64,000 nt of DNA from an uncultured Bacilli bacterium (GTDB lineage Bacteria; Bacillota_I; Bacilli_A; RF39; UBA660), in contig CALVOP010000004.1 in the NCBI GenBank assembly GCA_944350345.1, positions 12,190-76,189 of the forward strand, read 5' to 3'. Made by a program: the position numbers. This document shows, piece after piece, positions 50,001-62,000 of the stretch (positions are counted from its first letter, which is position 1; each line of letters opens with the position of its first letter).

Positions 50001-53000
50001 TTTCAATTAATCCTTTTGGGTCAATATTTGATAAATGTACTTTTTCTTTGACTGTATCTATGATTACATCTCCCCATATTAATCCATTTCTTACTTGTAA
50101 ATCATTGTATAAGTCTGGCGTTATTGAATAGTAGAAATACCCGAATACTACCCTTTTTTGTCCAATAACTAACCTTTTGTTTGTTACAGCAATTACACAT
50201 GTTGTAATTATGTCTAAAGGATTATCATTTTTTTGCCCACAAAACGCATATAAAACTCTTTCTCCTGGATTTAAGTGCATTTGTACTACCTTGGAATTTT
50301 TCTTTAGCCTCCAAGCTATCGTACGTGGATATTTCCTTTTAAATTCTTTTACTTTATTATATACTTCGTTTTGTTCCATTTATATCACCTAACTATTTGG
50401 AATAAATTCGCCAATTGCGCTTATTTTTGTAACAAAATATGTACCTTGAGCAGTATTTGGCGCATCTTCTTTTACCCATGCATATAAATTAAATATTTTT
50501 TGTTCTCCTGCTGATATTAAAATATTACTTGCTAATTTATAGTCAGTTAATGCTGAATATAACTGTACTGTTGGATTTAAACCGTCTTCTCCAAATCCAA
50601 TCATTATGTTGCTATATGCTGTCTCTGTATAATCAGAATAATCTGGAAATTCTGTATTCAATATAAATTCCGTATCTGGTTCAAGTTTTATTGTTACATA
50701 TAAGTCATAGTCACCTGTATTTTCTAAAATAAATTTGTATGGAGTAGTATTTAATCCTTCAGTTTGACTCATTGGATATACCTTGACCGGCACTGATTCT
50801 CCCTCTTCATTTGTTTCTGTACCAATTATATTGCCTAAATTTTGAACTAAAGAATTACAAGACGAATCCGCGCAAAAAGACATTGCTATATCACCAAAGT
50901 TTATAACATTTGTTCCCCCTTCTTCTACATCCATAAAAACCGAATATGAAAAAGCGATTAACCCTAATGTTACTAGGATAATTGTTAAACTTGCAATCAT
51001 AATTTCTCTTTTAATTAAAACACGCAAATTCACATTACACCACCAGTCCATATCATCTATTTATTATTTTATAATATTATTAGCCCTTTTTCAACTGTTT
51101 AGTGAATTAATTTTATCTAAGATAGCAAAATTTATATTTAAATTTTTATTTTGTTCACTATTGGGTGTATCACTATTTAACCATATGTAAATTTTATTAT
51201 AATTAATTGTATTTTTTTCTATTGTATTTGAATCAATTAAAAAGTATGTAATGTAATCATTTTCTGTGTAATAACAATCACTTAACTTTAATGTTTTTCC
51301 ATTTATATTTATCATTAAATAATTTGTATTTAGTGTTGAATTTTTTTCTACTATTAACATAAGGCTGTACTTTTTATTTTCTTTGGTGTTATTTATTACG
51401 TTTATAATTGAATAATCTAAATTGTTTAATGCGTATTCATTGGTCACTGGATATAAGTTATTTAAATCTGCTTTTTTTTCGTAGTATAAAGTAACATCAC
51501 TAGCTTCATAGTTATCGTAATATTCTGCAATTTTGGCTCCTTCACTCTCTCCTATCATATGCAAAACTGGATATGTAAATATTACTAAAAATATTAAAGT
51601 TATTATTTCTATAATACACTTAGTAATCTCCTTATTTATGCCCATTTTTCCCCCTTTTGTTTTCAAGTGTTATATTTTAACAATAATTTTCTATTTTGTA
51701 AACAAAAAACGGCAAATGCCGTTATATGTTATTTAATTTTTGTGTATCTGATAATTTTTTCTTTTTCTTTTTATTAATTTCTTCTACTTCTATTTTTTCT
51801 ATTTTTATTTCTTCTTTTTTCTCATTTTCTTCTTGTTCTTCCTTGTCTTTTGATTCTTCTATTTTCTCTTTTTTGTCCACATCTTCTTTTTCTTTATTAT
51901 GTTTGTTCTCGTAGTCTTTTATAATTTTTTTATATAATTTTTTACTTTTATTTTTACTTATCAATACACATATTAATATTATTAATAGCAGTATGCTTTC
52001 TGCACCTAGTACTATTATTATAAATTGTAGATTTTTAATTGTTCCATTTAGATAAATGGTTTCTTCATCCGTATACCTAGATATTGTGTTTTCTTTAGTG
52101 TCAATTTTATATATGTTTTCTTCTCCTGTTTCTATGTTTAAACCATATATAAGAAAGAAGTCACTATTTTTATCTATTTTGTAACCTGTTAGTTTTTCTC
52201 CATTTAGTTCAATTTCGTATTTTTGATAGTTCTCTGGATATTCATTATATTCTTTTGGATAAATTATTATATTATTAAATGTTAGTTCTTTGTATGGGGT
52301 GTAGGTGTTATTGGTCTCATCATATATATAGAGATTTATTTCTTCTTCTCCTTCAATTTTTATTCCAACTAATGTTAACTTTGTTATATCACTTATAAAC
52401 GCGGGTATTTCTTCACCATTTATGTTTATTGTCGTTTCGTTAAATGTATTTGGTTTGGTAAGTGTTGATGCTCTTTTGACTATTGTTCCTGTTTTTCCGT
52501 CTGTTGTTTCAACTGTTATTGGATTTGGATCTTCAACTTTGACATTTATTTTGTATTTTCTTTGACTTCCATTTTCTGCTGTTACTAATAGTTCAAATAT
52601 GTTGTCTCCTTCACTTACTTCTTTTTCTCCGGTTCCAGTAAGTGTCGCTGACCTATCATTTACTTCTGCATTTAATGTTATTTTTTCTATATTACTTGGA
52701 ACTGAAACTGTGTATTCAAGTGTTTCTGCATTAAATGTAGGAGTTAGTTCATATCCATCTACTGTAATGGATTTTAAGGTATTATCTTTTGAATAAGAGG
52801 CAATTAAATCATCTTGTGTTATTAATTTAACTGTTTTTGAACCTGCTGTTAAAGTCATTAGGCTTTCATCCCATGCATATGCTCGATAAGATTTTACTGT
52901 TATGTTAGTGCTTCCTGAACTTAATGCTTTAAATGTGTATGTGTAACTTTTTGATTTGGTTGTTCCATCACCATAGTCTACTACATTTGATGTTCCACTT

Positions 53001-59000: not shown

Positions 59001-62000
59001 GTAACTTGCAATTTAGTATAAAACATTTTACCTTTATCAATGTCTTGATTAGTATTCGTATTTTTAAATTCAAACGTTAAAACATAATTATGTTCTTCTC
59101 CTGGATTTATTTCTACGTTTGATAACATTGCTTCTCCCTCATTTACAGGATATGGAACTCTTCCACTATTTAAACTTACAATTTCAGTGCCATTTCTAGT
59201 TATTCCGTAGTATAGTCTGTTTTCCCATGTAAAGTCATTATATATATCAGTCCATATTATGTTATATACTAATTTTTGATCTGTGTCATTTTTAATTGTA
59301 AACTTTTTTGTACCTTTCCATCCTGGTGCTAAAGTGTTGCTCACTAGTTTGTCGTCGTCTATGAATGATAAGTCATATGTTTTTCCTGTTTCTAATTTTA
59401 TTTCATTTAAATTTCCAGGATTTACTATGAATTCGTAATCAACTAAATTTGTATCTGCTTTTCCATCTCCGTCTGTGTCTATGTTAACGTCTGCACTTCC
59501 ATTACCATCTAGGTCTATGTTGATATCTGGTATTCCATCTCCGTCTATATCTATGTTAATATCTGCTTTTCCATCATTGTTTGTATCACAGTTTAAATCA
59601 CATACTCCGTCTCCGTCTGTATCTTGATTTATTAAGTTTTTATCTGGTTTTCCATCTCCGTCTGTATCTATGTTAACATCTGGTTTTCCATCTTTATCAT
59701 AGTCTATGTTGATGTCTGCTTTGAAATCGTTGTCTGTGTCTATATTTGTATCTGGTTTTCCGTCTCCATCTACATCTATGTTGACATCTGGCAAGCCGTC
59801 TCCATCTGTATCTATGTTAATGTCTGCTAATCCGTCTCCGTCTAAATCAATGTTGATATCTGCTTTTCCATCTCCGTCTAAATCCACATTATTATCTGGA
59901 AAATTGTCTCCATTCATATCGCAGTTTAAATCACATACTCCATCCCCATCTGTATCTTGATTTATTAGGTTTTTATCTGGCTTTCCATCTCCATCTGTAT
60001 CTAAGTTGAATATTGGTTCATCATAATTTGTTCCGTATGAGATATTAACATCTGGTTTTCCGTCTCCATTTGTGTCGATGTTTGTATCTGGTTTTCCGTC
60101 CCCGTCTGTGTCTATATTAATAATTGGTTTACCTTCACCTAATGAATCTATGTTGATATCTGGCTTTCCATCCCCGTTTGTATCAATGTTTACATCTACT
60201 ATGCCGTCTCCATCTAAATCAATATTTACATCAGGAAGTCCATCTCCATCTGTATCACAATTAATATCACATATTCCATCGCCATTTGTATCTTGATTTA
60301 TTAGGTTTTTATCTGGTTTTCCGTCTCCATCTGTATCTACGTTAAAAAATGCACGGTATGTATGAGCATAATGAATGTTTAAATCTGGCAAACCGTCTTT
60401 ACCTGTATCACAACTTAAGTCACATACTCCATCTCCATCTAAGTCGATATTCATATCAGGCCAGCCATCTCCATCTCTGTCAGCATTCATATTTTTGTTT
60501 TTTAAGTCTAAATAGTTTAAAACTGAATATGTAGCTGCAACAGAGGCTCCAGCAAAAAGACAAAGAAACAACACTATTAAAAGTATGTTTTTTATTTTGT
60601 TATTCTTTTTTGGCTGTTCAAAATACAATTTCTCTTTTTCTATAATTTCTCTTTGTTCATTGTAATCTGGTTTATTATCATTTAATTCACTCATAGTAAT
60701 ACTCCTTTATTTTCTATTTAAATAATAACATAACCGTTTTATTTAATCAATATAGATTTTACTTATAAATCCCACATAGTCGTCAATTTTCCATCTTCTT
60801 TATATACTGAATCCATTAACATAATATAGCCATATAGATTGCTGTCAACAACTCCTCTATATCTTTCGAATGTTTCAACATTTACTCCAGCGGCTAAGCT
60901 TTCTGCAATATAGATATTATTTTCGTCAAGTCCTACAATTATTGCTATGTGGCCGTCCCTTCCAATTAAATCTCCAACTTTTACTTTGCCAGAAGTCATT
61001 AGATCATAAGTTAATTCTACTCTTTCTCCTAAATCACATAAATCGTCATCTCTATATGTAAAGTCTCCTGCACCTGAATCTCCTACATCAAAGCCACCAT
61101 TGTATAATACCCATGATATAAAACCACTACAACTTAAACCATTCGGGTATTTTCTTCCACCAATAAATCCAGCTTCAGTTTGGTAATTCATCAACGGACA
61201 TCCCCAGATTGCTGGCCCTGCTTTTATTGCAGTTATTTCTTCTATTTTATCTGTGCTTAAATAAAGGCCTTTATGGTAATATCTTCCCTCTCCGTCTGCT
61301 TTTGGTCTACCTGGGTGATTATTTAATCTACCATTTTCAAAAAAGTATGGTATTTTAACTGGTAAACTCATCGTTAAGAATCTAGCTGCTTCTACTACAC
61401 TTGCTCTTGTTGCATACCCTACACTATTTACTCGATCAAATAGTATTTCATCTAATAAGTGTGCTTCTTCTTCAGTGTATTGTTGACAAGTTAATTTGGC
61501 TTTTTTATTGTTTATAACTTGTTTTATTATTAAGTTTGTTACAATTAATTCTACTTTAGCTTCGTTACCATCTACCGATGTAATTATAATGTTTGTGTTT
61601 CCTTCTTTTTTTGCATATACAGTTTCATTTTCTATGTATGCAATATTTTCATCTTCTACTTTATATGTTAGTGTTTTGTCTATATCTCCAAGTGTTATTA
61701 ATTCTACTTCCAATTTTTCTTTTCCATTTACTGGTAAATATATTTTTTCTTTTGTTGGTGTGATAGATATAATTTTATTTATTTCTACTTTTTTAGTTGT
61801 TGTTTTATTTATTATTTTGTTTCCTCTTTTTAAATAAATTTTATAGTTTCCAGCATCTACTTCAAATTTACATTTGTTATTTTTAGATAATACCCAGTTA
61901 TTTTCATCAAGTTTTTCTTCAGTTATTTGACAATAAATTTTATCATTAAAAAATGATTTGATATTTATAGTAAGTTCAACTCTGTTATTTTCATTTATTT

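Follow-up and report, generated by a model that had tools for sequence, protein, structure and literature searches.

The window analysed here, a stretch of 64,000 nucleotides (nt) from contig CALVOP010000004.1 of an uncultured Bacilli bacterium (assembly GCA_944350345.1; lineage RF39, UBA660), is AT-rich (GC content, ~0.21 to 0.37) and carries ten consecutive minus-strand open reading frames (ORFs) at 50389-60694. A preliminary description of this DNA had proposed a SipW-type signal peptidase locus with seven TasA/camelysin-like secreted proteins, and an ORF check of the window recovered all ten genes at the same positions. The genes are as follows.

58988-60694, minus strand: A568, giant family member with a C-terminal TasA-like domain
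58302-58883, minus strand: B193, putative major subunit 1
57577-58152, minus strand: C191, putative major subunit 2
56879-57460, minus strand: D193, putative major subunit 3
56139-56738, minus strand: E199, divergent family member, putative minor subunit
55520-56152, minus strand: signal peptidase of 210 aa, endoplasmic reticulum (ER)/archaeal-type signal peptidase I, SipW-like
53234-55426, minus strand: G730, secreted wall-associated protein, not in the family
51722-53218, minus strand: H498, cadherin-like membrane protein, not in the family
51091-51666, minus strand: I191, divergent family member, candidate uncleaved membrane anchor
50389-51051, minus strand: J220, divergent family member, candidate tip or minor subunit

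The 3′ end of E199 overlaps the peptidase gene by 14 nt. Comparison with orthologues indicates that J220 probably starts at a GTG at 51033, six codons later (214 aa), and that I191 probably starts at Met8, at 51645 (184 aa). The likely product of the locus, in our view, is a surface or matrix filament of the TasA superfamily, encoded along with its own ER/archaeal-type signal peptidase.

As the preliminary description had supposed from its SPSM box, the peptidase belongs with the ER/archaeal enzymes. It scored 102.2 bits against TIGR02228, the model for archaeal/ER-type signal peptidase I (cutoff, 51.85), and did not group with the ordinary SipS/LepB enzymes, reaching 18.1 bits against the bacterial LepB-type model TIGR02227 (cutoff, 47). 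The score against NF046067, the Bacillus SipW equivalog, was 97.5 bits, under the cutoff of 190. The closest relatives of known structure in the Protein Data Bank (PDB) are the human catalytic subunits SEC11A and SEC11C. The SPSM, THR, and KGDAN motifs of the peptidase align with SGSM, VHR, and KGDNN of SEC11A, with the SPSM box (S65-P-S67-M) falling on the catalytic Ser motif. If the assignment of the SEC11A catalytic residues is taken as established, the putative catalytic residues are Ser67 (SPSM), His110 (THR), and Asp129 or Asp135 (KGDAN..D), and the alignment of S67, H110, and D129 points to Ser/His(/Asp) rather than Ser/Lys catalysis. Transmembrane (TM) segments are present at both the N and C termini. 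Because of the three model scores and the motif alignment with SEC11A, we classify the peptidase, at the level of sequence, as a SipW/Sec11-type enzyme that is not an orthologue of Bacillus SipW.

Sequence comparison places the seven proteins in one family, as had been proposed, with similarity far above chance; I191 is the weakest link. By BLAST, B193, C191, and D193 are 71 to 83% identical to one another (B193 is 71% identical to C and D, and D193 is 83% identical to C191), E199 is ~26% identical to B-D (E values of 1e-12 to 1e-15), and residues 431 to 566 of A568 match E199 with an E value of 1e-7. A profile was built from an alignment of close relatives (A1), which are only ~45% identical. 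B193 matched this profile with an E value of 5e-85, and the C-terminal domain of A568 matched it with E values of 1e-4 (hhalign) and 7e-6 (hmmsearch). When a family hidden Markov model (HMM) was run against every window ORF of 70 aa or more, it matched exactly these seven. When the proteins were fitted to this model, the C-terminal F-K-E-T..QN..QGK motif, which had been noticed in the preliminary description, and an LPGW-type motif with an invariant Pro were in register in 7/7.

Since I191 and J220 were not detected by BLAST, single-sequence hhalign, or a shallow profile against A1, related loci and their ORFs were brought in. Eighty related genome loci (labeled L0xx) were fetched, and their ORFs were used for family searches; a second alignment (A3) comprises C191 and 66 distant relatives that are 25 to 37% identical to it (67 sequences). 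A six-member alignment of the J family matched A3 by hhalign with 95.9% probability (E value of 6e-9 over 158 columns), and the I family matched the J family with 96.2% probability (E value of 2e-9 over 164 columns). The hhalign signal for both proteins arose only with alignments enriched in orthologues from the related loci. Iterative jackhmmer searches were seeded with mature domains from which the hydrophobic N termini had been removed. Starting from J220, they reached I191, E199, A568, and C191 by iteration 3; starting from I191, they reached J220 by iteration 3 and E199, A568, and C191 by iteration 5. The alignments span most of the domain, and the searches converge on E199, A568, and B-D. 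We judge it very improbable that I191 and J220 are small membrane proteins outside the family whose motifs are mere mimics, which would reduce the family to five. That possibility draws on the three non-significant searches, on the direct comparison of I191 with A3 (E value of 0.33), and on the use of a small, family-enriched database for the iterative searches.

The preliminary description had also pointed to a shared N-terminal hydrophobic segment ending in an aromatic box. All seven proteins have the segment followed by a box in the same position (TFA-WF, TFS-FF, TYS-VL, SYS-VF, or TYP-VL; the hyphen marks the putative cleavage position). The segment M..NKGQTIFLSVIGIATLLVAIIGATFAYFTTT is almost invariant across homologues that are ~45% identical. 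Among close relatives (A1), the commonest residue has a frequency of 0.96 in the hydrophobic segment, 0.92 in the box, and ~0.55 in the mature protein; among distant relatives (A3), the corresponding values are 0.67, 0.82, and 0.38. The G-x-T-F-A-x-F box is the best-conserved element of the family, also in the distant set. By analogy with TasA, we infer cleavage after the small residue of the box: TFA-WF in B, C, and D, TFS-FF in E (full box, TTFS-FFTST), TYS-VL in A568, and SYS-VF in J (FSYS-VFMD). The TasA precursor residues ahead of the mature start are GGGTWA, giving the site GGGTWA-AFND. The TasA fibre chain starts with AFNDIK (PDB entry 8aur). I191 has Pro at the putative -1 position and no plausible cleavage box. 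Because of this Pro and a conserved Glu within its hydrophobic segment, I191 would remain uncleaved. The shared segment and box position hold for all seven, but the TYP-VL box of I191 is not plausibly cleavable.

A different reading of the same N terminus, M..NKG-QTIFLSVIGIATLLVAI, is that it is a class III (type IV/archaeal pilin-like) signal. A prepilin-type peptidase would cut after Gly6, and the helix would be kept as the core of a pilus. Near invariance of the hydrophobic segment among homologues of ~45% identity is as in type IV pilins, a KGQ motif lies ahead of the segment, and the helix of the I family has a conserved Glu. The segment may also loosely resemble archaellin N termini. However, KGQ is confined to the B/C/D subfamily, being absent from E199, A568, I191, and J220 and unconserved in the A3 consensus, and B, C, and D lack a Glu at +5. 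A Pfam scan of the locus genes and ten other window ORFs found no prepilin peptidase, assembly ATPase, or platform protein. The invariant of the whole family is instead the G-x-T-F-A-x-F box, which lies downstream of the helix and aligns with the TasA cleavage site; relatives match the SipW-cognate signal model, and the linked enzyme is sipW. A type IV pilin was rejected as the main model on account of the restricted KGQ motif, the missing Glu at +5, the lack of prepilin machinery genes among the locus genes and the ten other ORFs scanned, and the invariant box with its linked sipW, and we regard this reading as having only a slight chance of being correct.

The relation of the seven proteins to TasA is remote. 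The best score of a window protein against the Pfam model PF12389 (Peptidase_M73) was that of C191, 20.9 bits against a threshold of 22.5 (E value of 3.4e-4). B, D, and E scored 11 to 15 bits, also below the threshold, and A568, I191, and J220 gave no match. The SipW-cognate signal model TIGR04088 was matched by no window protein at an E value of ≤1, and TIGR04089 and TIGR04090 gave no match to any of them. The relatives carry the signal further. Peptidase_M73 was matched by 34/46 close relatives, at scores below the threshold (best E value, 1.2e-4), and by 34/67 sequences of A3 (best E value, 1.4e-10). The A3 sequences also included matches to the BsaA-family model TIGR04090 (7/67; best E value, 2.8e-6) and the TasA model NF046066 (4/67; best E value, 1.1e-5), and TIGR04088 was matched by 3/46 close relatives and 8/67 A3 sequences (best E value, 1.8e-4). 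B. subtilis TasA, the mature sequence of which was verified against 8aur, aligned with A1 by hhalign in the C-terminal motif only (E value of 0.041), with FKDD..QNKYQGNS of TasA opposite FKETG.DQNAQQGKS of the family. In an AlphaFold2 (AF2) model, C191 is all beta, with a predicted local distance difference test (pLDDT) score of 76 to 94 over residues 51 to 170, and residues 1 to 47 are disordered or of low confidence; such model-based evidence for a TasA-type fold is modest. Together, these comparisons make it well supported from sequence that the seven are remote members of the TasA superfamily (TasA/BsaA/camelysin). The suggested likeness to TasA and camelysin therefore stands as remote homology, seen through relatives and profiles, but not as membership of the window proteins in curated Pfam or NCBIfam families. 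The branch is large: C191 has 484 homologues, with no precomputed Pfam domain among the 120 matches listed, and the A1 profile found 3,863 clusters (50% identity) at an E value of ≤1e-3, 1,288 of them at ≤1e-10, in 1.84 billion representatives.

Two other functions were considered for proteins of this kind and rejected. The name Peptidase_M73 would suggest camelysin-type metalloproteases. This reading was rejected because HExxH occurs in 0/7 of the family proteins, and the peptidase label of CalY is itself regarded as a likely misidentification (PMC11580942); we give it practically no credence. A sortase-assembled Gram-positive pilus was rejected because neither an LPxTG motif (0/7) nor a sortase domain (Pfam, all locus proteins) was found. 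The seven are acidic, putative beta-sandwich proteins (mature isoelectric point [pI], 4.0 to 4.7) without protease (HExxH) or sortase (LPxTG) motifs.

B193, C191, and D193 are candidates for the shaft of a filament. The predicted mature form of B193 has ~164 aa and a pI of ~4.05. Upstream of each of the three genes lie a promoter-like site (TG-extended, TTGATA-17-TATTAT/TATGAT) and a ribosome-binding site (AAGGAGG), and a hairpin with a T-run lies downstream.

B193: promoter-like site at 58939-58911, terminator-like hairpin at 58267-58250
C191: promoter-like site at 58208-58180, terminator-like hairpin at 57542-57525
D193: promoter-like site at 57515-57487, terminator-like hairpin at 56840-56821

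The gene set of the preliminary description is retained, but the locus does not read as a single simple operon. The B, C, and D upstream regions can be aligned with one another, including the ribosome-binding site, and the duplications therefore took regulatory DNA along. Separate predicted expression signals fit highly expressed major subunits. The major-subunit subfamily has Tyr89 and a near-invariant Cys pair, C91/C169 (C191 numbering, alignment A1); the pair may form an extracellular disulfide in the fibre protein of an anaerobe. An N-E-K isopeptide triad is not conserved: the invariant or near-invariant columns of A1 include E150 and no Lys or Asn outside the leader. In related loci, genes like E199 lie directly upstream of sipW or behind major-subunit genes.

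The remaining family members are built differently. A568 consists of a cytoplasmic N-terminal motif (IIEKEKLYFEQP), a TM segment, a TYS-VLNY box, ~360 aa of Asp-rich repeats, and a C-terminal TasA-like domain at ~430 to 566. The repeats resemble thrombospondin type 3 (TSP3) repeats, contain 27% Asp, 21 DxDxDG motifs, and four CDxxC motifs, and are predicted to bind Ca2+. Proteins like A568 are widespread in related loci and share the EEKKIIEE[DE]GLYFEEP motif, the TM segment, a [ST][WFY]S[VI]xNY box, DxDxDG/CDxxC repeats, and the TasA-like end. The EEKKIIEE[DE]GLYFEEP motif followed by a basic cluster ahead of the TM segment was seen in residues 1 to 60 of A568 and in its homologues in L007, L010, L013, L016, L018, L019, and L065. 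Such conservation of a cytoplasmic motif in giant Ca-repeat subunits is unexpected for a leader that is merely cut off.

In I191, a TM segment that bears a conserved Glu within the membrane (IIEII) is followed by a predicted jelly-roll-like ectodomain. In I-like ORFs of L028, L034, L040, L046, L052, L072, and L077, the conserved Glu lies in the sole hydrophobic segment (LLEI/IIEI) and the T-F-A-x-F box is absent. The sequences of the I-type proteins suggest a retained TM helix with a functional charged residue. J220 orthologues elsewhere bear C-terminal extensions of 400 to 600 aa (the J-like protein has 613 to 824 aa in L040 and L052), and J220 is a candidate tip or minor subunit for this reason.

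These features can be combined in a filament mechanism modeled on TasA, in which polymerisation proceeds by donor-strand exchange and TapA donates the first strand (PMC9674648). SipW would remove the leader by cutting after the small residue of the box. The freed N-terminal strand (~residues 30 to 47) would then insert into the beta-sandwich of the next subunit, giving donor-strand complementation with no chaperone; in the C191 monomer model, the N-terminal ~47 residues lie outside the confident core. B, C, and D would form the shaft, as recent tandem duplicates that each have a strong-looking promoter, ribosome-binding site, and terminator of their own. E199, which appears to be translationally coupled to sipW, would be a minor or nucleating subunit. 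I191 would be retained in the membrane, where it could form the base or anchor in the manner of TafF in Tafi pili, and J220 would serve as a tip or minor subunit. A568, in which a long Asp-rich stalk predicted to bind Ca2+ carries the TasA-like domain, may serve to anchor, space, or cross-link the filament. Local remodeling of the wall may be the role of G730, which bears a dockerin and is SH3/glucosaminidase-like, and of the membrane protein H498. A multi-subunit fibre, as the preliminary description suggested, is a reasonable inference.

The same proteins could instead be SipW-dependent surface proteins with a TasA fold that do not polymerise, acting as a coat, adhesins, or matrix binders, with the paralogs providing antigenic or functional diversity. 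The evidence consists of homology and predicted fold, and three near-identical major genes with separate promoters would also suit antigenic variation. BsaB, a TasA-family paralog of C. perfringens, is reported to form dimers rather than long oligomers (PMC11580942). On the other side, all experimentally studied branches of the superfamily (TasA, BsaA, AbpA, AbpX, threads, cannulae, and Tafi) make donor-strand filaments (bioRxiv 10.64898/2026.01.04.697558). The N-terminal ~47 residues are outside the folded core, and the locus has the architecture of a filament locus, with major and minor genes, a TM-anchored member, and a member with extended orthologues. We therefore consider non-polymerising surface proteins an unlikely explanation.

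Several observations weigh against a TasA-superfamily filament. Polymerisation, the cleavage site, and all subunit roles are deduced from sequence and models. The hydrophobic segment is more nearly invariant than would be expected of a discarded signal peptide. No window protein exceeds the curated threshold for Peptidase_M73, TIGR04088, TIGR04089, or TIGR04090, and the A1 profile found nothing among PDB sequences even at an E value of ≤10. The J220 model has a pLDDT score of only 62. I191, non-significant against A3 directly, enters the family only via J220. Finally, sipW is absent within 10 kb in about one-third of the related loci, for example those of the CAG:628 type, and the linkage of sipW with the family is for that reason not absolute.

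The related loci all come from uncultured or metagenome-assembled genomes (MAGs), mostly labeled Bacilli, Tenericutes, or Mollicutes. The number of family genes per locus has a median of 3 and a maximum of 10, and multi-paralog loci are the norm in this clade of uncultured Bacilli. A sipW gene is present in 54/82 loci; a family gene lies immediately upstream of 52 of the 62 sipW genes, and an I-like gene lies directly downstream of 10 of them. The recurrent core consists of major and minor genes, then sipW, an I-like gene, and a J-like gene. The CAG:628-type loci (L005 to L013 and L016 to L019) contain one to seven genes for major subunits along with two for minor subunits and two for giant A568-like proteins, with no sipW within 10 kb, and they end beside a multi-TM protein of 650 to 700 aa, tilS, and ftsH. 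About seven major-subunit genes stand in tandem in L019, and several of their ORFs have no leader, perhaps through frameshifts or faulty assembly.

G730 and H498 are unrelated to the seven-member family. Pfam matches in G730 are SH3_3 (2e-20, two domains), a C-terminal type I dockerin (Dockerin_1, 7e-14), and Cadherin-like (6e-6); a SagB-like glucosaminidase region is weak (NCBIfam SagB, 6.6e-8, far under the cutoff). H498 has a signal peptide, an N-terminal beta domain, a Cadherin-like domain (Pfam, 6.6e-10), a C-terminal TM segment, and a Lys/Glu-rich tail, and a terminator-like hairpin lies at 51723-51708. Placement of the two genes between sipW and the I and J genes was seen only in the window and in L002 and L003, its closest relatives. 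The pair also occurs in L025, and in other related loci the I-like and J-like genes follow sipW directly. Because their placement between sipW and I/J is confined to the window, L002, and L003, G730 and H498 are probably a lineage-specific addition, with G730 an accessory gene or insertion. H498 was considered as a cohesin partner of the G730 dockerin, but this was unsupported: no cohesin was found in Pfam (E value of ≤1) or among PDB sequences, where the best match was CBM2-like (E value of 0.16). The G730 dockerin is thus one without a detectable cohesin partner, in the genome of a non-cellulolytic gut Bacilli bacterium. Directly upstream of the locus, on the same strand, 60763-62118 encodes a membrane-anchored protein of 451 aa with a Big_2/HL_N-beta Ig-like domain and an unassigned, Cys-containing C-terminal domain.

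The known systems closest to the locus are the Bacillus TasA, C. perfringens Bsa, haloarchaeal Tafi, and AbpX systems. Like B. subtilis tapA-sipW-tasA and B. cereus sipW-tasA-calY, the locus places the gene of a dedicated ER/archaeal-type signal peptidase beside those of its putative substrates. Also shared with the Bacillus TasA systems are a signal ending in G-x-T-aromatic-A followed by x-F after the putative cut, a C-terminal FK..QN..QG motif, acidic, putative beta-sandwich subunits, and an accessory member presumed to nucleate or anchor the fibre. Unlike those systems, the locus has seven family members instead of one or two plus TapA, mature subunits of ~160 aa instead of 234, similarity under Pfam and NCBIfam thresholds, a peptidase under the Bacillus SipW equivalog cutoff, no recognisable TapA, and in addition a giant Ca-repeat subunit and a TM-anchored member. 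The C. perfringens sipW-bsaA-bsaB-bsaC locus (BsaA family, TIGR04090) likewise has sipW beside more than one TasA-like paralog. It differs in that the locus described here has no conserved N-E-K isopeptide triad, no vWA protein (BsaC), and no two-component genes, and the window proteins do not themselves match TIGR04090.

The likeness to haloarchaeal Tafi (TafA/E pilins, TafC tip, TafF anchor, TafD signal peptidase, and TafG) is architectural only. Tafi loci encode a signal peptidase, pilins, a tip, and a TM-anchored jelly-roll protein, with assembly by strand donation (PMC12337348). Here the host is bacterial, inspection of the N termini found no twin-arginine signal, Pfam found no DUF5305 (TafG-like) domain among the ten locus proteins, and the locus has no transcription regulator. 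AbpX loci combine signal peptidase I with minor subunits, tip proteins, and anchors, and calcium is implicated in assembly (bioRxiv 10.64898/2026.01.04.697558). In common with AbpX are acidic subunits (pI ~4), aromatic residues opening the predicted mature N terminus, loci with putative minor, tip, and anchor genes beside a signal peptidase I gene, and a presumed role of calcium; the acidic composition of the seven resembles that of the calcium-responsive AbpX clade. The AbpX-associated peptidase has ten TM helices, whereas the peptidase here has two hydrophobic segments; predicted calcium-binding capacity is concentrated here in a separate TSP3-like repeat subunit, and there are no SLH, LPXTG, or sortase anchors.

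The preliminary description had held the arrangement to be undescribed, and this part of it could not be kept. Several BsaA/TasA paralogs have been found in single operons, with heteropolymers suggested (Kivimaki et al., PMC11580942), and the Tafi and AbpX loci join a signal peptidase with minor, tip, and anchor parts. The arrangement is for these reasons not categorically new. What is new is a large, divergent, unannotated branch of the TasA superfamily in uncultured gut Bacilli, the high paralog count (seven), the giant TSP3-repeat subunit with a conserved cytoplasmic motif, and the I-type member with an intramembrane Glu. A limited literature search found nothing linking this clade (RF39) with TasA. 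If the family is recognised as a filament system of the TasA superfamily, attachment, aggregation, or matrix building in these uncultured organisms with small genomes would become open to study for the first time. Structural studies and biomaterials research would likewise gain naturally occurring donor-strand fibres made of several kinds of subunit (major, minor, anchor, and Ca-repeat). Present Pfam and NCBIfam models miss this entire branch of the superfamily.

A more elaborate version of the filament proposal is that the locus specifies a complete, chaperone-free heteropolymeric pilus that is the main surface appendage of a large clade of uncultured gut Bacilli. I191 would be the uncleaved, TM-anchored base with a functional intramembrane Glu. 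A568 would be a Ca2+-rigidified TSP3-repeat stalk or cross-linker, the cytoplasmic EEKKIIEEEGLYFEEP-type motif of which would couple assembly to a cytoplasmic factor. Three interchangeable, independently expressed major subunits would allow antigenic or mechanical variation, J220 would be the tip, and a dockerin-tethered peptidoglycan hydrolase would open the wall for the fibre. Taken jointly, these proposals are speculative, and we think it rather doubtful that all of them hold.

Other features were noted elsewhere in the window. A CRISPR array lies at 62190-63395 on the minus strand, with about 19 copies of the 36-nt repeat GTTTTGGTACCCTAAGAATTTTTGCTATACTAATAC and 30-nt spacers (period, 66); the pair of spacers farthest from the leader occurs twice. 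The 600 bases of the window that remain past the array showed no recognisable cas gene, and the adjoining ORF of 171 aa (63450-63965) had no Pfam match. A region for cell envelope glycopolymers at ~23689-42841 encodes several glycosyltransferases (GT2/GT4, one fused to Alg14), a sulfatase/LtaS-like protein, and an LCP (LytR-CpsA-Psr) protein with a PASTA domain. Such genes point to an organism with a cell wall, even though related MAGs are labeled "Tenericutes." PFOR is encoded at 20199-23621. Twelve tRNA genes cluster at 10345-11906, all on the minus strand except for two on the plus strand, and another is found at 1440-1513.

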